Positions 683 to 49,647 of a stretch of 64,000 bases of DNA are shown here, piece by piece. This stretch comes from Octopus vulgaris. Lineage: Eukaryota. The stretch's first letter is position 1, and the number at the start of each line of letters is the position of its first letter. The position numbers and the translations under genes were made by a program. The notes beneath the pieces were generated by a model. The model made no database searches. It had not been told where the DNA came from and saw only the letters and a list, made by a program, of their open reading frames with translations. Where the stretch lies: positions 80,972,001 through 81,036,000 of the forward strand of contig OX597819.1 in NCBI GenBank assembly GCA_951406725.2, in the 5' to 3' direction.

Positions 683-1085
683 TCTTTTATAGAGACTTAG
701 TAATTTTAATATTTCTATTATTGAAAACAAGTGGATGTATTCCACTGAAACTAGGTAAATATAAGCCTTCGAACAGAGACGTCAGTGGCGACACCTGCGG
801 GGTCTGACTGTGCTACATTGACAAGGGGCAATACCCCGAAACGCGTCTGTAGCTGTCGGACTGGCAGTGTGAAGCGGCTGACCTCCCTTGTTCGAAGGTT
901 ATAATGGATACAGATCGTGTATCAATAGCTATCTTAAGGCGGTGGCCTTATGGAGCTGACCAGCGGCAGCGATTATTCTTATATCTATAAGAATGCCATA
1001 TTAATATGGCGATAACAATTAATTTCCAGTAAACGCTGTCGTAATCTCTTTTATAGAGACTTAGTAATTTTAATATTTCTATTAT
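683..1085 (+). mobile_element. Non-coding hammerhead-containing unit with 39-bp terminal direct repeat (retrozyme-like or PLE pseudo-LTR)
   Basis: TCTTTTATAGAGACTTAGTAATTTTAATATTTCTATTAT occurs at 683-721 and 1047-1085 (period 364). The GC-richer core holds a hammerhead at 812-853, and the unit ends in (TA)n. Confidence 0.7.
812..853 (+). ncRNA. Type I minimal hammerhead ribozyme, U3-A8 core variant
   Basis: GCTACA-TTGACAA-GGGG caata CCCC-GAAA-CGCG-TC-TGTAGC: 6-bp stem I, 4-bp stem II, palindromic stem III (ACGCGT), GUC cleavage triplet. Confidence 0.85.
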
Positions 1086-1087
1086 AT

Positions 1088-1119
<32 letters not shown>

Positions 1120-1122
<3 letters not shown>

Positions 1123-1800
1123 GTAGGGAAAAATTTTTTTTAAAATGCAGAATGCTCAAATGAAAGAAAATTTTAATAAAATGAGAAATTGATAAAATAT
1201 ATAAATATATATTTATTCAACCGGTTTTCGTCATTGTATGACTTGTCAAGAATATTTATGTTTTAAAAAGTTTTTTTAACAATTAGAAAGGGGAAAAAAA
1301 GAAAATTGCATTGTTTTTTGTAAAAGAATAATGATAAAAATGTACAAAAATTAAAAAATAAGTTCTCCGATACATTGTGAGTTCGTTGTGTATCTTGAGT
1401 TTTATGGTTGTTTACGAAAAAATTACCTTGAGGTGTTAAGATCCAAAGGGATTAAGAGCATGTGTTGTGTTGTTAAATTCAGCATGTTTGCAGGACAGGA
1501 AGTAGTAGTAATTGTGGTCCTGGTTCTTCAGTTCCTGTGTTGTGAGTAAGGGGAGACAACTCTTTTGAGTTCTTCAATAAAACCCAAATTATAAAATTAT
1601 CATTTTAGCTTCATTTGCGTTATCTTTTTTATATAATTGCTTGTTAACTTAACTTTCAGATTTTAACACTTTATTTATATTATTTTCTAATTATATAAAT
1701 CTGCATAGACAATTGCATTTCAAATTGTCATATCATTTATAATAAAAATGATAGTAATAACAACAATAGTAAAAATGATATTTAAAGAATATAAGTTTTA
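1120..1800 (-). mobile_element. PLE 3' end remnant with hammerhead-like motif at 1214-1254
   Basis: Minus strand reads TATTC-TTGACAA-GTCAT aca ATGAC-GAAAA-CCGG-TT-GAATA, and the segment abuts (TA)n. Confidence 0.55.
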
Positions 1801-1854
1801 GCTTGAAGTGATGAATGCATGGTATCTTTATATATTTGTGTTAGTCCATCCATG

Positions 1855-2010: not shown

Positions 2011-2362
2011 TACTGTGGAAAACAAATTTCCAGTATGCTTCGGGAAACTTAATATGTGTGTTAACTTGCTCATGTTGTCGAGAGCAATACATAGGCTAAA
2101 CCAAAAACAGTCTACGCCAGAGGATGACCCTCATAGATCCCAGATTAAAATTCGAAAATACAGAAAAATAACATTAAGCGAACAGATCAGCATTTACGCC
2201 ACTAACGAACATCACAACGTCAGAATTTTTCCCCTATATAAATTCAGGGACGATGCATCCTGTAATCAGCGCATTAGCAAAGAATCATATTTTATCGCAA
2301 AATATAAACCCATTTTGAATTCTTCCTCCACAGATGACACTACTGCAAGTATCTTAGAATAA
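2011..2362 (+). pseudogene. Penelope-like GIY-YIG endonuclease C-terminal fragment
   Basis: Frameshifted reading ...NLICVLTCSCCREQYIG*TKNSLRQRM...HRSQIK...RIFPLYKF...KESYFIAKYKPILN, closely resembling the PLE ORF at 18121-18921. Confidence 0.85.
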
Positions 2363-4949: not shown

Positions 4950-6300
4950 TTCTTTGATAGTTTTATTTTTGTCCTGCAGTATCCAACGAAAACAATGGGT
5001 CTAATCTATAGTTACCTTGATACTTTGTGGATGGAGTTAGCTACGTGCCGGATGCTCTTCATTATTCTCCTCTCGGTTTCTACATTACGGTTATTAGAGT
5101 TTGTCCTACCTAGGATATTAACATCATCTAGATACCTACAGTAAATCTAAGCAGTTATGGATTGCTCCGCTAAGGATTGTTTTAGTTTTTTTATCCTATC
5201 AGGTCTTGATGAGGCCGGCCACATCTCCAGCCACACCAACACCCATAGGTGCACCTTGAACCTGCATGTATAGTTTCCTGTTAAACTTTACTATGTAGTT
5301 CTTCAAGGTCCTTCTTATGCTCGCCCCTATTGCATGTGCAATCATTCTTTTCACCTGACTTGTTATCCGGTTCCTGGGTGGGTATGGTCCAGCCAGACCA
5401 GTACTCGGCGGTACTTTTTTTTCCTTGCCAAGGTGATGGTGGGTGGTCTTCCCGACTGTGTCTTGGTGGGGCAGAATCTACTAAGATCATGGTTGTGTAG
5501 GTAGTTACAGTCATAGCTTAGTTTAAGGAGGAGGCTCAGTTCCCTCGTGTTGACTTCAAAGAACTCTGTCTCACTCTTGCAGATAATCTCAATACATTTT
5601 TCCTCAGCAAAATCTATGTCTAAAGATGAGTAGAGTGAAACTACATCCATACTACCCGCTACACAACCTGTGAGGTCGTTGAAGTGGTTGCAGCTATTGA
5701 TTCTACTGAGGAGATTCTCCGAGCCCATACAGAAATCTGAGGACATTTCAATGACTGGTCGTAACACCTGTAGGAGGAAGTAGGATAGCCTATAATTGCT
5801 GGAGACATTCGCTCTGCAAACTGGCCGGGTTGGGGGCCCCATAACAGGGTTTACTTAGGGTTTATGATCCTTACGTAACCCGTATAGAGTAGGAATATCA
5901 CTGTCTAATGCATGGAAATTTTGTGCAGTACGTTTCTTGGGTTGGAGTATGTTGAACCACATTTCCATGTGTGCATTGAGCTTTTCCACTATTTCATGTG
6001 GTGCAATTTCTCTCATGCTAATGATGTGTTGTTGCATGGTCTGGATATAGTTCAGTGGGCTGTCTATCGACAATCTGTCACACTTGCCTGTAGGGAAGCA
6101 TGCTAATTCCCTGTTCCTAATTCGCTGTTTCAGTTTTCGTAAGCCTTTGGCAACAGATGAACTAAGTTGTTGGGTCTTCCCTTCATTATGTTTTTAGTGG
6201 TTTTGTTGTACCGGTGGTCTAAGATGTGTCGGAAATCAATTTCAAGTTAAGAAAATCTTTGCTTCTGTCTCTGTGTTGAAGGATAAGACTGGGGTAGATA
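4950..6300 (-). pseudogene. Penelope-like reverse transcriptase, second lineage, frameshifted
   Basis: PTLYGLRKDHKP...GPPTRPVCRAN; GSMDVVSLYSSL (RT3); LYMQVQGAPMG (RT4, ~5240-5275); RYLDDVNI (~5115-5140). Confidence 0.85.
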
Positions 6301-17220: not shown

Positions 17221-17640
17221 GATATTTTGAGTGAGATAGAGTTCCTTTGTGATTGATTTTTTTCTCTTATCTGACTTTATGTTGGGTTTGCTGTCTCTTA
17301 TATGTGAAAAAAGAGGCTCCAGAGTTGTTTAAGATTTGCTTGGTTTCGCGCCTAAAATTTCTTATTAGTCATAATAAAGAGGTCACGTGAATGTGGTCAT
17401 AATAGAGAGGTCACGTGAATGTTTAGAATGAATGTTGATGTAGGTGGTGTATGGAGTTTTCGAAAATAGCGTTGTTGAAAATTCTTATTGTTCAGGCTGG
17501 TCAGTAGACGTCATGTGGAGATTTTGAATAGCTTTTCAGCGCGTAGTTAAGGAGTGTATTTTCCGCTTGACTGAATTTGAGCTGGAAAAGTAAGTTCGTT
17601 TAGGACAGGAAGAGCTATATGTATGTGTGTGTGTGTGTGT

Positions 17641-17681
<41 letters not shown>

Positions 17682-17964
17682 TATATGTATGTTGGGGCGC
17701 GCGCGCGTGTATATATGTGTGCGTGTGTGGGTACAATTTTCAATATTTATAGTTCTGCTGGCCTTGTGCCTGTATCGGGAAGCAACGTGTTTGTGTGAAG
17801 TCAATATTTACAGTCATTTCCAAAAAATAGTGTTGGATGTTTTGCACCCGTATCAAATTATGTGTATGTGTGGAACCATATGTTTGCCTGTGTCATGGTG
17901 TTAATATCTGGGTAAAAGTGTGTGTAGGGTGTGTGCAGGTGTAAGTGTGTTTGTTGTGGGTTCG

Positions 17965-20860
17965 TGTTAGGGGGATGTGTTTAGAAGTGGTCTGTATTTA
18001 TTAATAAGGTGGGATTCCGTGGTTATTCGCTGGGTATGAGTGGCATTGTCTTTAAATTTGTAGAGGGGAAAGATTCTAAAATTGGGATGAAGTTGTGCGG
18101 CACATGTATCAATATGTGCACTAAGTGCTATTTTTCTGTATTTTTATTTGGGATCTATGGACAGCCATGCGTTGGTGGAGGCTATTTTTAGTTTGGCCTA
18201 TGTAGTGTTCATTACAGCCCGAGCAAGTTAAGACATATACTAGGTTTTCTGATGCGCATGTGAAGTTGTGTTTTACTGTGAAACGTTGTCCTTGTTTAAA
18301 AAGGAATTCCGGACCTTCTTTTAGGTTGATGCATATACCACAGTTGGGTCTATTGCATTTGTTTACTGTGGGTTTAGTTGTTGTCGTTGGCAGTACTTTG
18401 GTATTTGTTAGGATGGTTTTCAATGATTTGGGTTGCCTTTTGCTCTTTATGATTTCGAGTGTTAGGAGGATTTGGTCCATTCTATGGTCCTTTTTTAATA
18501 CAGGAATGTTCTGGAGGATGGTGTCAAAAGTTTCATTGTTGAGGGAGTTGTGTGTAGAGATGTATGGTAGAGTATGGGGTTTCGATGTAACAGGTTTAGG
18601 GCGTCTAAGTTCCTGTGTGCTGAGTTTTAGGGCGCGTTGCATCCCATTGTCAATTAGTGACGTGGGGTAATCCCTGCTTGTTAATGTGTCCTTAAGTTCT
18701 TGTAGACGTAAGAGATGGGTGTTTTTATTGGAGACTATAGTGCAAATTCTCTTGGCTAAGTTGTAGGGAATGTTAATTTTAACGTGTCTAGGGTGGCATG
18801 AATTGAAAGGGAGGTATTGCTTGGAGTCTGTGGGCTTGTAGTATATGTCTGTTTCTATTTTTTTATTGTGAATTTTAATGAGGATGTCGAGGAAGGGAAT
18901 TTGTTGAGGGCTGTATTCCATTGTGAAAATAATGTTTGTGTTGAGCCCATTTATAAGGGCGTGAAATTATTTAAGCTTCTCGATGGTTTCGGGCCAAAGG
19001 ATGAAGCAGTCATCAAGATATCTCTTCCAGTTCTTCTCTATGTGTGTGTGGAGAGTGGTGCCAAATTGGTTAAGAACGTTATTATAGAGGGTGATTTCCA
19101 GGTATCCCATGACTAGGTTGGCGTAAGTGGGAGCTGTTTTCGTTCCCATTGCCGTCCCTGATTTCTGTCTGTAGAATTTGTTGTTGAAAGTGAAGAAATT
19201 ATTCTCTAAGATGAATTTGAGTCCTTCTAAAATAAATTCCTTTTTGATGCGGTGTGGGAGTTCGTTGGAGTAATTATCCAGCCAGAATTGGATAGCTTCT
19301 ATTCCTAGGTTGTGGGGGATGTTGGAGTAAAGATTAACTACATCGAATGTTACTAGCAGGGTTTGTTCAGCAAGAAGTGTATTGGGGAGGTGGTTGAGCA
19401 TATCTAGATCGTCCCTTATGTAGCTTTTAATGTGTTTGAGGAAGGGCTTGAGAAGGGTATCAATGAAGTTGCTAAGGCGGTGGGTTTCGCAAGCGGGACC
19501 TGCTATTATAGGTCTCAATTTGAGGTCATTTCGTGAGGGGACATTGATTACAGAGTTTGTGGCTTCCTTGCATGCCTTACTTATTAATTCGCTTTTATGA
19601 ATTTTGGGAATACCGTAGAAGAGGCTGGTTTTACTAGTGAAATTTGAGATGAAGTGAGATGAAGTTGAATTCTTTGTTAGTGAGTTCTTCTTTGTGGGGG
19701 TTGATCTGGGTTTTTAAGTTTCTCATAATTTTCTGTTGATTGTAGTGTTCAGCCTTTTCGTAATATGTTCCATTTTCCAAGGTGGAGAGTGCTAAGTTGA
19801 TATAGTATTCAGTCTCCATTAAGACTACTGCACTTCCTTTGTCGGCCTCTTTAATGGTGATAGATCTTTCATTTTTTAATTTGTTTAATTCTTCCCACTC
19901 TTTCTTGTTGAGGTTTTGTTTGGGTTTTGGTTTGTGTAAGTGTTGGTAGGGGAAGTTTGTAATGTGCTCACAGAATTTGTCTAGGATTTTATTTCTACCT
20001 TTTGGTGGGGTGTAGTTGCTTTTATTTCTAGCTAGTGACTCATCCTCATTGTGCTGGTCGAATAGTTCCTCACTAAGTCGTAATTTTCTGCAAAATTCTG
20101 TAATGTCTTCCTTCATTTGGAAGTGGAGGGGGGTGAATTTAAGACCTTTGGAGAGTAAGTTGAGAATGTTGGGGTTGGGCTCTGTATTGGTTAAATTGAT
20201 GACTTTAATTAGTTTCTGTTTCTCTTCCCTGTCCTGTGTTATTTTGTTTGCCTGTATCTGTGTGCTGTGTCTAAAAAATGGTGGTGTTAAGAGGTCCTGT
20301 GTGTTTGTCATATTCCTTGTTGTGAAATATGGTTCGGGTTCGTGGTTGTGGATAGAATGGAGTGTTCCTGTATTGCGGGTGTTGGTGTGTGTTTCTTTGT
20401 GTCATGTTGGATTGTGGTGATATGAATGGCCTACGTGGGTGCTTGTATCGAGTGGTATGGGCTTGTTGTGTATTGTGAGAGTTGAGAAAGTGAAAATTAC
20501 CTTGTTGTCCCCTCGTAGTGTGGACGTTGTTGTGTCTATCCTGGTAGTGGAATCCTCTTTTATTTGTTAATAAGGTATTCGAGTAATTGTTGAGTTGTTG
20601 TGTATAGTGTCTCCTTGAAGGGGGAAATTCGTTAATGTAATTCTGGTGATGAGGGTTTCCAGGGTTCTTGTTCCTCCTTATGGACGTGGGGTAAGAAGGT
20701 ACATCTTCAATATGCTGTTTCCTTCTTTTGTTCGAGGTTGGAGGGTTGGCGGAGTAGTTCTGTGGTTGGGTTCCTGGTTTTCCCATTTTTATGAACGGGT
20801 TATTGGAAGAGTAATCCGTTTTGAAAGTCGATTCATAGTTTAGGAACCAGGTGGCACTTT
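17965..20860 (-). pseudogene. PLE polyprotein (RT + thumb + GIY-YIG endonuclease), broken by frameshifts
   Basis: LLSKGLKFTP, IKEADKGSAVVLM, FYGIPKIHK, RPIIAG, TFDVVNLYSNIPH, QKSGTAMGTKTAPTYANL, WKRYLDDCF, IPFLDILI, YKPTD..YLPFNSCHP, NLVYVLTCSGCNEHYIGQT. Confidence 0.95.
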
Positions 20861-21818
20861 TTACAACTTTAAAGACAATGCCACTCATACCCAGCGAATA
20901 ACTATGGAATCCCACCTTATTAATAAATACAGACCACTTCTAAACACATCCCCCTAACACGAACCCACAACAAACACACTTACACCTGCACACCCTACAC
21001 ACACTTTTACCCAGATATTAACACCATGACACAGGCAAACATATGGTTCCACACATACACATAATTTGATACGGGTGCAAAACATCCAATACTATTTTTT
21101 GGAAATGACTGTAAATATTGACTTCATACAAACACGTTGCTTCCCGATACAGGCACAAGGCCAGCAGAACTATAAATATTGAAAATTGTACCCACACACG
21201 CACACATATATATACACACACACACACTCACACACACACACACACGCACACACACACACGCGCGCGCGCGCGCACACATACATATAGCTCTTCCTGTCCT
21301 AAACGAACTTACTTTTCCAGCTCAAATTCAGTCAAGCGGAAAATACACTCCATAACTACGCGCTGAAAAGCTATTCAAAATCTCCACATGACGTCTACTG
21401 ACCAGCCTGAACAATAAGAATTTTCAACAACGCTATTTTCGAAAACTCCATACACCACCTACATCAACATTCATTCTAAACATTCACGTGACCTCTCTAT
21501 TATGACCACATTCACGTGACCTCTTTATTATGACCAATAAGAAATTTTAGGCGCGATACCAGCCAAATTTTAACATCTCTGGAGCCTATTTTCTTACCCC
21601 AACACCAACTTCCATTCAAACATTCACGTGACCCCTTTATAATGACCAATCAAAATTGTATTGACAATTGTCCACAAGAAATTTTAGGCGCGAAACCAAG
21701 CAAATCTTAAACAACTCTGGAGCCTCTTTTTTCACATATAAGAGACAGCAAACCCAACATAAAGTCAGATAAGAGAAAAAAATCAATCAGAAAGGAACTC
21801 TATCTCATTTAAAATATC

Positions 21819-39066: not shown

Positions 39067-39292
39067 ATGTGTGTGTTTGTGTCTCTGTTTGTCCCCCCAA
39101 CATCGCTTGACAACCGATGCTGGTGTGTTTACGTCCCCGTAACTTAGCGGTTCGGCAAAAGAGACCGATAGAATAAGTATTAGGCTTACAAAGAGTAAGT
39201 CCTGGGGTCGATTTTCTCGACTAAAAGCGGTGCTCCAGCATGGCCACAGTCAAATGACTGAAACAAGTAAAAGTGTAAAAGAGAGTAAAGAG

Positions 39293-39293
<1 letters not shown>
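38856..39293 (+). mobile_element. SINE family B
   Basis: Family B consensus. Confidence 0.9.
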
Positions 39294-39324
<31 letters not shown>

Positions 39325-39354
39325 TATATACTCTTTACTCTCTTTTACACTTTT

Positions 39355-41105
39355 CTACGAGAAAAGAAGAGAAGAATCTCGGAAGAAACTACGAAGTTAT
39401 TCGAGAAGAGGAAAAATATGAAGCGGACTATTGAAGATCACCTTGAATATTCCCTTCTCAGCAGAGTGATTCGTCAGCAACTAAAGAAAGACTTTGAGGC
39501 ATACCGGATGGAGAAGCTTTTGAAGGCCGCAGAGGAAAAGAAGAACCTTAAGAAATGCAAGAGGGACATGGTACTATATAGATCGGAAGTGACGGCCCTG
39601 AAAAATATAGATGGAATACCGGTCAACGATAAGAGCGAGATGGAAAAAGTTTGCAAAGACTTCTACACCAAGCTCTTTAAGTCCACCAGAAATGTCCAGC
39701 CGTTACCACCACTCCAACAGGAAGAAAATGTGCCACCTATCCTTGTCAGTGAGGTTGAAAGAGCCATCGGCTTGATGAAAAACGGAAAGGCGCAAGGAAA
39801 AGACGGTATAACATCGGAGGTGCTAAAGTCAGACAGAGAGCAGCTCTGGAAAATCCTCGCTGAGCGATTTACGCACTATCTAGACGAGGGAAGAATTCCT
39901 TCGCAGTGGAAAGAGTCAAATACCATCCTGCTATATAAGAAGGGCGATAGAGAAGATCTAAAGAACTACCTACCCATATGCCTACTGTCTCACGTGTACA
40001 AGCTGTTCACGAAGATAATTCTGAACAGGTTATCACGTCATCTCGACGAACAACAACCGAGGGAACAAGCCGGCTTCCGGAAGAACTACAGCACGATGGA
40101 CCATATATTTACTCTAACTCAACTGCTTGAGCGAGCGAAATGAGTACAAGCTGCCTCTTTGCGTTGCGTTTGTAGACTATGAGAAGGCTTTCGATAGCGT
40201 CGAAACCAACGCAGTGCTGAACTCGCTGCAGAGGCAAGGAGTCGAGGCGCAATATGTGCAACTGCTCAGGGAGGCAAATTCCGGATGCACCACCGACATA
40301 GCTCTGCTGTCATCACCCGTACGAGTGCCGATCGAGATGGGAGTGAAGAAAGGAGATACAATCTCCCCAAAACATTTTACCGCGTGTCTCGAACAGATCA
40401 TCAGAGGCATCGACTGGCAAGGCAGTGTCTACATCAATGGTGAGCTCCTCACCCACCTCCATTTCGCAGACGACATCGTACTCATCGCTGAAACCACGGA
40501 TCAGCTTCAGACCATGCTGACGGAGCTCGACATCAAAAGCTCTGAAGTAGGTCTCAAGATGAACCGCATGAAAACGAAGTTCAAGCGGTCAGACAACGTA
40601 CTAACAGATCGAATGGTGATCGGCAGTGATGAAATAGAGGAGGTAAAGGAATATGTCTACCTGGGACAGGAAGTGAATATGTGTCGAGATATCGAAAAGG
40701 AGATCTCACGGAGAGTAAGGGCCGGATGGAAGGCGTTTAATGGCATAAGGGATGTGCTCAAGGGACGGTTGGACAGGACCACCCGCGCCAGCCTCATCAA
40801 CAGTACAGTTTTACCTGCAATGTTTTACCTGGCTGTGAAACACGGGCTAAAACGAAGAGAGAAGAGCAGGGACTGGTAACGGCTCAAAGAGCCATGGAAA
40901 GATCAATGCTTGGTATCTCGTTGAAAGAGCACATCAGTAGCGAGATCATCAGAAAGAAGTCCGGCTTGAGGGATGTCATCGCAGAGTATACACGCAGCAA
41001 GTTTAGATGGGCTGGACACGTCGCCCGGCTTACCAATAATCGGTGAACCCGCGCGAGTGGAAACGATCACCCGGAAGGCCTCCACGACGGTGGAGTTACG
41101 ATTTC
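39355..41105 (+). pseudogene. 5'-truncated RTE-clade LINE reverse transcriptase with frameshifts and stops
   Basis: KNYLPICLLSHVYKLFTKII, EQAGFRK, FVDYEKAFDSV, GVKKGDTISPK, FADDIVL, YVYLGQ; followed by (TATG)n. Confidence 0.95.
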
Positions 41106-45789: not shown

Positions 45790-47303
45790 TTTATTTTTAT
45801 CTAGTTTCAGCTCACAAGCTGTGGCCATGCTGGGGCACCGCCATTTGGTGTTGCTACATGATTTTACTCCACGAATGCTTTTTAGCAATTGCCATTTGGT
45901 GCATGAGAGAGTTCGATGCAGCTGCCCGCATCTGCTCCTCCTCCCGTGAAGTTGGTTCATCTGGGACACCTGACAAGAAAAGATCCAGTTTTATTTTAAA
46001 GACATCTGCATCCACCCCATGCAGATCTCTTAGGTTCTTCGGGGGGATATTGAAGAGCTGTGGGCCTCGGAAGCCCAGGCTATCACAGTATCTTGTCCTA
46101 CAACTTGATGGCAAATTTGGACTCCTTGGCACTATGCAGTGGCGCCCAGTTCTGGCATTTGTATAACTCTCGATGCCAAAGTTTGGGACAAGTCCTTCTA
46201 GGATCTTCCAGATGTATATTATGGCATATCTTTCTCGCCTACGCTCTAAGGAATAGAGTCTCAATCTCTTGAGTCTTTCCCGATAGCTTATACGCTGCAC
46301 AGAGGCTATCTTCTTTGTGTAGCTTCCTTGGATCGCCTCAAGTTCTGTGATTAACTTGACACTGGATGGTGACCATAGCTGAGAGCAATAGTCAAAGTGG
46401 CTTAGGACAAGTGTCCTCCAGAGGACCATCATGGTTTCCTGGTCTCTTGTTCTAAAGGTTCTAAGAATCCATCCGGTCAGCCGCCTACATCTCTTTGCCA
46501 ATTTAGCAACATGCACATGAAAGGTTGCATCATCACTCATGTAAATACCCAGGTTTCGCACTGATTGTGCCTCTGGGATTGCAATCCCTCCAGGTCCAGT
46601 GTATTTATTGGGTATTGCATTTAGTTTTGCATGCTGATAGCATAAAGCTTGAAACTTTTCAGCATTGAACTGCATGCTATTCTTTTCAGCCCACTTGTAT
46701 ATTTTGTCCAGCTCACATTGCAGGTGCTTAGTGTCTTCAGGGTTCTGTATTGCCTGTGAAACTTTTGTATCATCTGCATAACTTGTGATCGTGGCTCTCT
46801 GCGTGGCTGAGGGCATGTCTGAGAGGGCCATTATGAACAGTAGTGGTCCCAAAACAGTGCCTTGCGGAACACCGCTCACTATTTGCGTGTTAATGGAAGT
46901 GGCTACTACCACCTGACTTCTATCCTTCAGAAAGTCATGAAACCATTCTCCCAATTCTCACGCAGTTTGTGACATATCATTCCATGATCGACTTTATCAA
47001 AGGCCTTTGCAAAGTCGAGATATATGACTTCCACATTTGAGTGGTTGAGCAGTCGTTTCAGCACCCAGTCATAGTGTTGTAGGAGCTGAGTTAAGCAGCC
47101 TCTTCCTGGTCGGAAACCATGTTGGGTGTCAGGCAGCAAGTCATTTTCTTCAAGGAAGGTGATTAGTTTCCTTCTGACTATTCGTTCCATGACCTTGCTG
47201 ATGGTTGAGGTCAGAGAGATAGGTCTGTAGTTCTTGGCCTCCGCTCTGCTACCTCCTTTATGAATAGGGCATATTTTACCTTCCTTCGGTTTTCTTGGAA
47301 GTT

Positions 47304-47306
<3 letters not shown>
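45790..47306 (-). pseudogene. 5'-truncated CR1-clade LINE (RT + 3' UTR)
   Basis: NYRPISLTS, QHGFRPGR, YLDFAKAFDKVDH, SGVPQGTVLGPLLF, SYADDTK, DYCSQLWSP, LYSLERRRER; one frameshift/deletion near 46940. Confidence 0.95.
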
Positions 47307-47350
<44 letters not shown>

Positions 47351-47353
47351 CAT

Positions 47354-47764
47354 AGGCGCAGGAGTGGCTGTGTGGTAAGTAGCTTGATTACCAACCACGT
47401 GGTTCCGGGTTCACTCCCACTGCGTGGCATCTTGGGCAAGTATCTTCTGCTATTGCCCCGGGCCGACCAATCCTTGTGAGTGGATTTGGTAGACGGAAAC
47501 TGAAAGAAGCCTGTCGTATATATGTATATATATATATATGTGTGTGTATATATGTATGTGTATCTGTGTTTGTCCCCCTAGCATTGCTTGACAACCGATG
47601 GTGGTGTGTTTACGTCCCCGTAACTTAGCGGTTCGGCGAAAGAGACCGATAGTACTGGGCTTACAAAGAATAGATCCCGGGGTCAATTTGCTCGACTAAA
47701 GGCGGTGCTCCAGCATGGCCGCAGTCAAATGACTGAAACAAGTAAAAGAGTAAAAGAGTAAAGA

Positions 47765-48364: not shown

Positions 48365-49415
48365 TTGAATATGAATTGCACTTTATTTGGGAAAATTACA
48401 TTTTCAGAATATACAAGCCGTTACTAGTAAGAAAGTCAATGTTGATACATATCGAAAGATCTGAGTAGACTCAGTTGTAAGCTAATGAAGTACATTATAT
48501 AACCTTTGATTTTTCCGGTATCAGCTCTTTGTTCCTCTTACTACTTTGTCTATACTCATCTAACATTGTGCTCTATACCATATGTATATTGAGTTCTACA
48601 CCAGTTTATTAGTGGCGCTATGCCTAAGCGAAATATTAATACATATACATGTTTGTGTGTATGTTTGTGTGTGTGAGTGTGTCTTTATGTATGTGTTTGC
48701 CACACAAACACCCGCACACACAACTGCTTGACAACGGATGTTGGTGTGTTTACGTCCCCGTGATATAACGGTTCGGCATAGACCGATAGAATAAGTACTA
48801 GGCTTTAAAAGATCAAAGAAATCCTGAGATTGATTCACACATACATGCACACACATACATGCACATACATACATGCACATACATACATATATACAGATAC
48901 ACGCATACATACAAACACATAGATACACACAAATACATACACACATGTACATACACTCACATACATACACACACACATACATACATACATGCAAATACAT
49001 ACATACATACAAATGCATACACGTACACACACATACATACACTCACATGCATACACATACATGCACACACATACATATATGCAAATATAGTTACACCCAT
49101 ACATACACATACATGCACACACATACATACACACACATACACACACACACATACACATACATACATACACACACATACATACACATACATACATACATGC
49201 ACATACATACATGCACACACATACATACATGCACATGCAAATATAGATACACCCATACATACACATACATGCACACACATACATACACACACATACACAC
49301 ACATACACACACATACATACATACACTCACATGCATACATACACATGCATACACATGCATACATATAAATACATACACATACATACATATATATACACAA
49401 GCGAAGCCAAGCCAA

Positions 49416-49647
49416 GCCCAATGTCGCCAAGAGCGAGCTCTGGTCGCCGTAGCGCTGACTGTGGGGCTGGTAGCTGTGGACAGTCAGCCCAACATTGCCC
49501 AGAGCGAGCTCTGGTCACCGTAGCGCTGACTGTGGGGCTGGAAACTGTGGACAGTCAGCCCAACGTCGCCAAGAGCGAGCTCTGGTCACCGTAGCGCTGA
49601 CTGTGGGGCTTGTAGCTGTGGACAGTCAGCCCAGCGTCGCCCAGAGC
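49416..49647 (+). repeat. GC-rich 71-bp minisatellite, ~3.3 copies
   Basis: Units start at 49416, 49487, 49558 and 49629. Each full unit contains the inverted pair GCTGACTGT...ACAGTCAGC. Confidence 0.95.

Follow-up and report, generated by a model that had tools for sequence, protein, structure and literature searches.

A U3-A8 hammerhead in a 364-bp non-LTR retrozyme repeat of Octopus vulgaris and the insertion footprint of its genomic copies

The insertion and its hammerhead motif

The window analysed here, a 64-kb stretch of Octopus vulgaris DNA, carries near its start a solo copy of a repeat that, by its sequence, is a non-LTR retrozyme, a kind of element known in animals. Its features are listed in Table 1. 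The insertion lies tail to tail with the 3' end of an autonomous PLE in a single TA run; we call this neighbour Neptune-type on the basis of its features and not of a tree.

Table 1. Features of the insertion, its hammerhead and the adjoining sequence (window positions)
Feature	Position	Strand	Basis
Whole insertion, 1.1 units, 5' end at 683, 3' end at site B	683..1085	+	39-bp direct repeat; homology limits in 30 copies
364-bp monomer (predicted circle)	683..1046	+	repeat spacing, frame scan, circular folding
39-bp exact direct repeat	683-721 / 1047-1085	+	spacing 364
Rod-like extension of stem I, 133 nt	766..898	+	folding, covariation, copy 5' ends enriched at 865-898
Outer rod helices	802-808/855-861, 781-785/878-882, 766-775/889-898	+	sequence and folding
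Whole type I hammerhead	812..853	+	stem and core positions, folding, descriptor match, covariation
Stem I GCTACA/TGTAGC	812-817 / 848-853	+	sequence and folding
Core UUGACAA (U3-U4-G5-A6-C7-A8-A9)	818-824	+	sequence
Stem II GGGG/CCCC	825-828 / 834-837	+	sequence and folding
Loop 2	829-833	+	sequence
GAAA (G12-A13-A14-A15.1)	838-841	+	sequence
Palindromic stem III/loop 3 ACGCGU, predicted dimer helix	841..846	+	palindrome variation and duplex prediction
GUC	845-847	+	sequence
Predicted scissile bond after C17	847..848	+	hammerhead numbering laid on the sequence
3' end site A, putative reverse-transcription start	1012..1030	+	50/105 segment 3' ends
3' end site B (= 716-725 of the unit), putative second start	1080..1089	+	46/105 segment 3' ends
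(TA)n/(TACA)n target microsatellite, common to insertion and neighbouring element	1086..1122	.	sequence
3' pLTR of autonomous Neptune-type PLE, not part of the retrozyme	1123..1853	-	99% to L081; RT ORFs in L081-L083

Positions 812-853 hold everything required of a type I hammerhead core: positions 3-9, G12-A13-A14, A15.1-U16.1, H17 and a Watson-Crick 3-8 pair. Folded as a monomer, stems I and II pair with probabilities of 0.89-1.0 and the outer rod helices likewise with high probability, and the two stem III pairs have a probability of 0.0. The rod region as a whole folds with z = -5.5, none of 200 shuffles being as good. Loop 2 reads CAAUA in the window copy and CAAAUA or CAACAA in older subfamilies, the CAAAUA form presumably resembling the Schistosoma hammerhead loop. 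Judged by sequence and fold, the motif is a real type I hammerhead, for which self-cleavage is predicted.

A descriptor accepting CUGANGA or UUGANAA, run on both strands of the window, returned two sites, 818 (+) and 1249 (-); in 20 local shuffles it gave three relaxed matches and no strict one. An Rfam scan, both at the gathering threshold and at E<=10, did not find the hammerhead. The expectation that CUGANGA-only searches would miss this RNA and that a relaxed core would recover it is borne out, and a family of hundreds to thousands of copies is overlooked by CUGANGA descriptors and Rfam.

The earlier note had described a textbook minimal hammerhead inside a long rod. Every piece that it named (stem I, UUGACAA, stem II, GAAA, ACGCGT and GUC) lies where it was placed, the outer helices are confirmed, and the U3-A8 hammerhead and its rod stand; the word minimal does not, since the helix sizes are canonical. 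According to PMC4209133, the canonical metazoan type I layout has a helix I of 6 bp, a helix II of 4 bp and a helix III of 1-2 bp with a palindromic loop, whereas the min-HHR is defined by a long helix II, a short helix I, an extra base before stem II and a location in pLTRs. The helix sizes in the window match what Cervera 2014 calls canonical and not its minimal form, and with a helix II of 4 bp, a helix I of 6 bp plus rod, no extra base and no ORF, a min-HHR identity was rejected. Among the closest published parallels is the Cercyon PLE of Schistosoma mansoni, which carries a U3-A8 variant with the same compensated 3-8 pair (PMC4209133). As described there, however, its motifs are min-HHRs with a helix II of 7-8 bp and a short helix I, located in pLTRs and mostly single; the window hammerhead has canonical helix sizes, caps a 133-nt rod and belongs to a unit without ORF.

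Variation of the core and palindrome, and the dimer question

We searched 2.8 Gb of genome sequence in 227 contigs. The relaxed U3-A8 pattern matched 3198 times, some of the matches coming from other families, against 8 for a control pattern, and the 42-nt hammerhead core had 192 exact matches. Covariation was assessed in an alignment of 30 rows (the window copy plus 29 others, of which 4 are young and 25 older), with the structure taken from the window copy. Paired cells amounted to 93.1%, and two-sided changes occurred in 42 cells against a shuffle mean of 13.8 (0/500), a figure that is no probability, the rows being mutually related and the older ones picked by a core-fixing pattern. Pairs with a two-sided change numbered 8, compared with 5.7 in the shuffles (36/500), and the outermost pair of stem I was broken in 13 of the 30 rows. 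The earlier note had reasoned that a functional hammerhead should covary among genomic copies: stems I and II do so and the palindrome is kept self-complementary, which argues for a fold under selection.

A core-independent sample of 30 loci was located from an anchor outside the core, the 5' core being reached in 25. U3-A8 was present in 24 of these (manual count) and C3-A8 in one, C3-G8 was found in none of the 25, and G5 was changed in one. The C3-G8 version of the pattern matched the genome 75 times against 66 for its control, and the 12 loci checked share only an AT-rich 17-mer with the unit; because these loci are not homologous to the unit, no covariation at 3-8 was seen within the 364-bp family. 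The interpretation of U3-A8 as a compensatory 3-8 pair agrees with published cores (PMC3088659, PMC4209133): U3-A8 hammerheads occur in nature and are stated to be active in vitro (PMC3088659), and the variant, already published (Perreault 2011; Cervera 2014), is not new.

The palindrome occurs in four kinds, ACGCGT, ACATGT, ACTAGT and ACCGGT, its middle varying while self-complementarity is kept. Among the 100 matches listed, out of 3198, 95 are Watson-Crick palindromes of these four kinds (manual count); the remaining five, ACTGGT or ACGTGT, could pair via G.U, and duplex prediction left ACUGGU fully paired and ACGUGU paired over four bases. With WW imposed at the palindrome middle the pattern gave 928 matches, and all of the 100 listed read AT or TA. 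Core, stems and palindrome are retained across subfamilies at 69-91% identity. The family is also present in contigs from four sequencing runs labelled as three other organisms; among the differences listed for one of them are two-sided changes at 807/856 and 797/865, a further 22 differences lying outside that listing.

Such a palindrome suggests pairing between two hammerheads, and predictions were made at two scales. For two 58-nt cores the double hammerhead is the predicted minimum (-47.3 vs -42.0 kcal/mol) and the palindrome duplex is predicted to be stable (-7.5 kcal/mol). The predicted fold of a full tandem transcript consists of two separate rods with no double hammerhead, so that cleavage by the dimer could be slow or depend on assistance. 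Dimer cleavage of PLE hammerheads is credited to Lunse et al. in a review (PMC6765202), and the axolotl HHR_Amex1, which resembles the window hammerhead in its weak helix III with a palindromic tetraloop, is reported to be a poor cleaver in monomeric form and a good one when dimeric (PMC7229834); among Xenopus retrozyme dimers, 8 of 9 showed no cleavage in vitro (bioRxiv 2026.07.22.740005). The idea in the earlier note that a PLE minimal hammerhead acts here as a dimer survives in part: dimer action is predicted for two cores, but PLE min-HHRs sit in pLTRs and the window copy offers no cis partner.

Holding a single hammerhead, the window copy can give no monomer on its own and is probably inert, a dead end. 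It differs from close relatives only at 811 and 949, both outside the core, and is for this reason taken as a recent insertion. That the host has domesticated the ribozyme, to act on a transcript of this locus, we regard as very improbable: the core is intact, and trans pairing with a partner RNA could let one hammerhead cut a read-through transcript, yet stem III is unformed in the monomer and the copy is recent and surrounded by repeats.

The 364-bp unit and its insertion footprint

The unit has a GC content of 42% and its longest stop-free frames span 51 aa (+) and 65 aa (-). Folded as a circle it reaches an MFE of -134.8 kcal/mol (z -9.2 vs 60 shuffles, 65% paired), and its minus strand is likewise self-paired (z -6.8). 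A DNA search with the unit returned 1495 candidates, the best 40 of which are all 98-100% identical. The family is, on these sequence data, young, abundant and non-coding. Its unit falls within the 150-450 bp and below the 50% GC typical of non-LTR retrozymes, and it has one type I hammerhead per unit and both dispersed and tandem copies. Metazoan non-LTR retrozymes are described in the same terms, including the lack of an ORF, thousands of dispersed and tandem copies and a strongly self-paired predicted circle; examples are the mussel retrozymes of 350-390 bp and the axolotl Rtz_331 (PMC7229834). What sets the octopus unit apart from the retrozymes of Cervera 2020 is its U3-A8 core. Expression as linear and circular monomer RNA, a further mark of these retrozymes, is presumed for the octopus unit. 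With a longest frame of 65 aa, it lacks the RT plus GIY-YIG ORF of an autonomous PLE, and its identification as a pLTR-borne PLE minimal hammerhead was rejected, the hammerhead belonging to a non-autonomous retrozyme unit. In our literature search, which covered few subscription journals, no paper on this octopus family was found, and the word ribozyme is absent from the main text of the 2026 octopus repeat annotation (PMC13282606).

Insertion boundaries were examined in 63 loci anchored at 966-997, which yielded 105 segments. Their 3' ends are concentrated at sites A and B (96/105), separated by ~62 nt that correspond to a PLE-type tail, and the 3' flanks are A/T-rich in 92 of the 105. The 5' ends are variable. 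More than one unit is present in 26 of the 105 segments, with tandems of up to 5.5 units, and arrays chosen for length extend to 2015 bp. Among the first 60 loci, 59 match the unit and 33 are simple head-to-head pairs; over three locus sets we counted 69 such pairs, 10 of them with an end at neither site. An A arm is joined to a B arm in 56 of the 59 classifiable pairs, and in 31/31 of the anchored set. The copies thus display the marks of PLE mobilisation, namely a tail at one end, an inverted 5'-truncated copy, partial tandems and TA targets. All of these are shared with EN+ Neptune-type PLEs, in which the inverted copy is again 5'-truncated, the tail is confined to one end, targets are (TA)n or AT-rich and reverse transcription has two internal starts (PMC8557442, PMC11167929). 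The unit differs from them in lacking an RT-EN ORF and in its tail length, ~62 nt against the 30-40 nt given for published PLEs in these papers.

The adjoining Neptune-type family is itself young (1180 candidates in the genome search). Its copies have TA flanks, and their 3' ends fall at two sites separated by about 45 nt, against ~62 nt in the retrozyme; one short and one long end are combined in 6/6 pairs (5/5 with an exact anchor). Its pLTR in the window contains a second UUGACAA hammerhead-like motif, at about 1205-1260 (-), with a AACCGGTT palindrome and an ambiguous register at 15-17. Considered as homologous helpers, this family and an AT-rich U3-A8 family (L155-L166) were both rejected, neither having any sequence in common with the 364-bp unit, and no autonomous element homologous to the unit was found in loci L001-L060, L062-L084 and L155-L166.

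The unit might alternatively be nothing more than a pLTR belonging to an autonomous PLE, the copies seen being truncated ends and the complete ones having escaped the sample. Its ends do behave like those of autonomous PLEs, and of the 1495 candidates the search scored just the best 40. What follows in copies that exceed one unit, however, is more of the unit, repeated up to 5.5 times, and not an ORF, and a PLE-protein search of L001-L060 gave three matches, L001 (a fragment of the neighbour), L029 and L041; we hold this explanation to be improbable.

The positions of the 5' ends bear on the RNA that was copied. A pile-up of genomic copy ends at the cleavage site is not supported: 4 of 99 stops lie at 843-853 (p = 0.29), and none at 848. 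The 3' arm of the rod, at 865-898, holds an excess of stops (odds ratio 3.6, p = 6e-7), and its 5' arm, at 766-842, a deficit (odds ratio 0.38, p = 0.014), the bins having been set after inspection of the data. This pattern is as expected if the reverse transcriptase stalls on entering folded RNA. A second rise in 5' ends occurs at unit 735-765, just upstream of the rod (9.2 vs 3.7 per 1000 overall).

Template, proposed route and other elements

All 55 segments that reach 848 continue across 847/848, 7 of them twice, and among 111 copies spanning 843-852, 11 have substitutions and none a deletion, insertions being left unscored. Alleles were compared at anchored markers, one monomorphic marker being left out. 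They agree in 110 of 111 comparisons between arms and in 55/58 between tandem units (3/58 disagree), against 50.5% between loci. In the young set, raw distances, inflated by gap placement, were 2.55% for tandem units vs 2.54% for separate loci, and in four long arrays the units differ by 0.46% inside an array and by 2.34% from one array to another, variants private to a locus being present in all of its units. Because alleles agree within loci and segments read through 847/848, each insertion derives from one haplotype with an intact bond.

This result weighs against a role of the palindrome in uniting two separate RNAs, each then serving as the template for one arm of a two-armed insertion. 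The arms overlap in sequence and the predicted palindrome duplex is stable, at the value given above, but random partners would share alleles about half the time, as separate loci do, and not in nearly every comparison. Such a scheme is disfavoured and, to our mind, the least credible of those considered, surviving only if one locus gives nearly all the RNA of a cell.

Read-through and allele sharing are compatible with a circle and, to the same degree, with an uncut linear multimer copied from a homogeneous master array. The second possibility, which we think unlikely though deserving of attention, retains a non-autonomous element mobilised by a PLE, but its template would be an uncleaved linear multimer, a slow or protein-dependent hammerhead would only trim or fold the RNA, and arrays would come from long masters or unequal crossover. 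It accords with the lack of copies beginning at 848 and with the separate rods predicted for a tandem transcript. In the one PLE tested in vitro, from Anolis, ribozyme cleavage is moreover reported as dispensable and uncut RNA as the main template, and the PAc data have no RNA ends at the site (PMC11167929); for arrays, a 2026 preprint invokes local amplification (bioRxiv 2026.07.22.740005). Against it stand the conservation of core, stems and palindrome down to 69-91% identity, which needs a copy-number pay-off, the private variants shared by the units of one insertion, and the L171 locus, both arms of which exceed two units. A circle is favoured, as it explains why a gene-less parasite keeps a ribozyme and as circular RNAs have been shown for other retrozymes (PMC7229834); the Anolis result and the uncleaved Xenopus dimers weigh against it.

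The account that we prefer, and hold to be reasonably probable, treats the insertion as one lone member of a young non-LTR retrozyme family with a 364-bp unit. The U3-A8 hammerhead of the family probably cuts multimers into monomers that are predicted to form circles, and a PLE RT-EN acting in trans probably inserts these into TA repeats. The account starts from what genomic sequence shows directly: the unit and its copy number, the hammerhead motif with its covarying stems, 3' ends fixed at two sites, TA flanks and tandem and head-to-head layouts. Tandem copies would first be transcribed, after which the palindrome would join two hammerheads for cleavage following C17, and a host ligase would close the monomer. 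The PLE enzyme would then cut both strands of a TA repeat and reverse transcribe a single template from site A on one strand and site B on the other, passing round that template for as many as 5.5 units, with frequent stalls at the base of the rod; the two cDNAs would finally join head to head.

A more specific version, which we advance only tentatively, is that one protein dimer on one ribozyme-made circle primes both strands of the cut TA repeat, site A serving one strand and site B the other in every case, the circle being made by the U3-A8 dimer hammerhead. Tail, inverted copy and array would then be products of one rolling two-start reaction. If this is true, the insertions record how Penelope enzymes integrate. 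The ribozyme alone is unsurprising, U3-A8 and palindromic dimer hammerheads being already published; the contribution of the family lies in its footprint, which bears on the enzyme that mobilises animal retrozymes and on the way it does so. The A+B rule, mirrored by the adjoining autonomous PLE, together with the 364-nt template, makes the circle-plus-PLE model testable in vitro.

The link between retrozymes and PLEs is already in print. Cervera 2020 names PLEs as strong candidates for the mover, and its main text, in which the word inverted is absent, describes no two-armed footprint (PMC7229834). The Li 2026 preprint reaches the same conclusion on identity from co-occurrence and pLTR homology in 35 genomes of vertebrates, insects and one coral (bioRxiv 2026.07.22.740005). 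Our basis differs, being the insertion footprint, with no pLTR homologue found in L062-L084 and L155-L166. In the terms of that preprint the window copy, with its one hammerhead, is a monomer and not an active retrozyme; other loci, L168-L171 among them, do count as active.

Several other repeats were noticed. The AT-rich family L155-L166 (e.g. G000:C1:21857479) is older, has a U3-A8 core and an ACTAGT/ACTGGT palindrome, and TA or CA repeats close its copies some 70-130 nt downstream; it is probably another PLE pLTR, and a C3-G8 look-alike lies at G000:C10:86270878. In L205, around 1470-1600 of the reverse strand, a rod-embedded hammerhead with a C3-G8 core and an ACCGGT palindrome has no BLAST match to the unit and is possibly another retrozyme family. 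Within the window, 58337-58396 matches unit part 691-750 weakly (77% over 61 bp) and is perhaps an old fragment of the family. A broken Neptune-type PLE with an inverted terminal copy occupies about 17400-21600 (-); it has RT and endonuclease-like frames at 18121-20401, and the descriptor finds no hammerhead there. Further PLE-like endonuclease and RT fragments lie at 2019-2362 (+) and 5363-5854 (-), and visual inspection of the translations suggests two broken RT frames of non-LTR (LINE-like) type at 39289-40879 (+) and 45854-47577 (-). Finally, a GC-rich 71-bp tandem repeat of 3.3 copies, 90% alike, spans 49415-49647, two units of which fold as a long hairpin (-58.8 kcal/mol, a value with no shuffle control).
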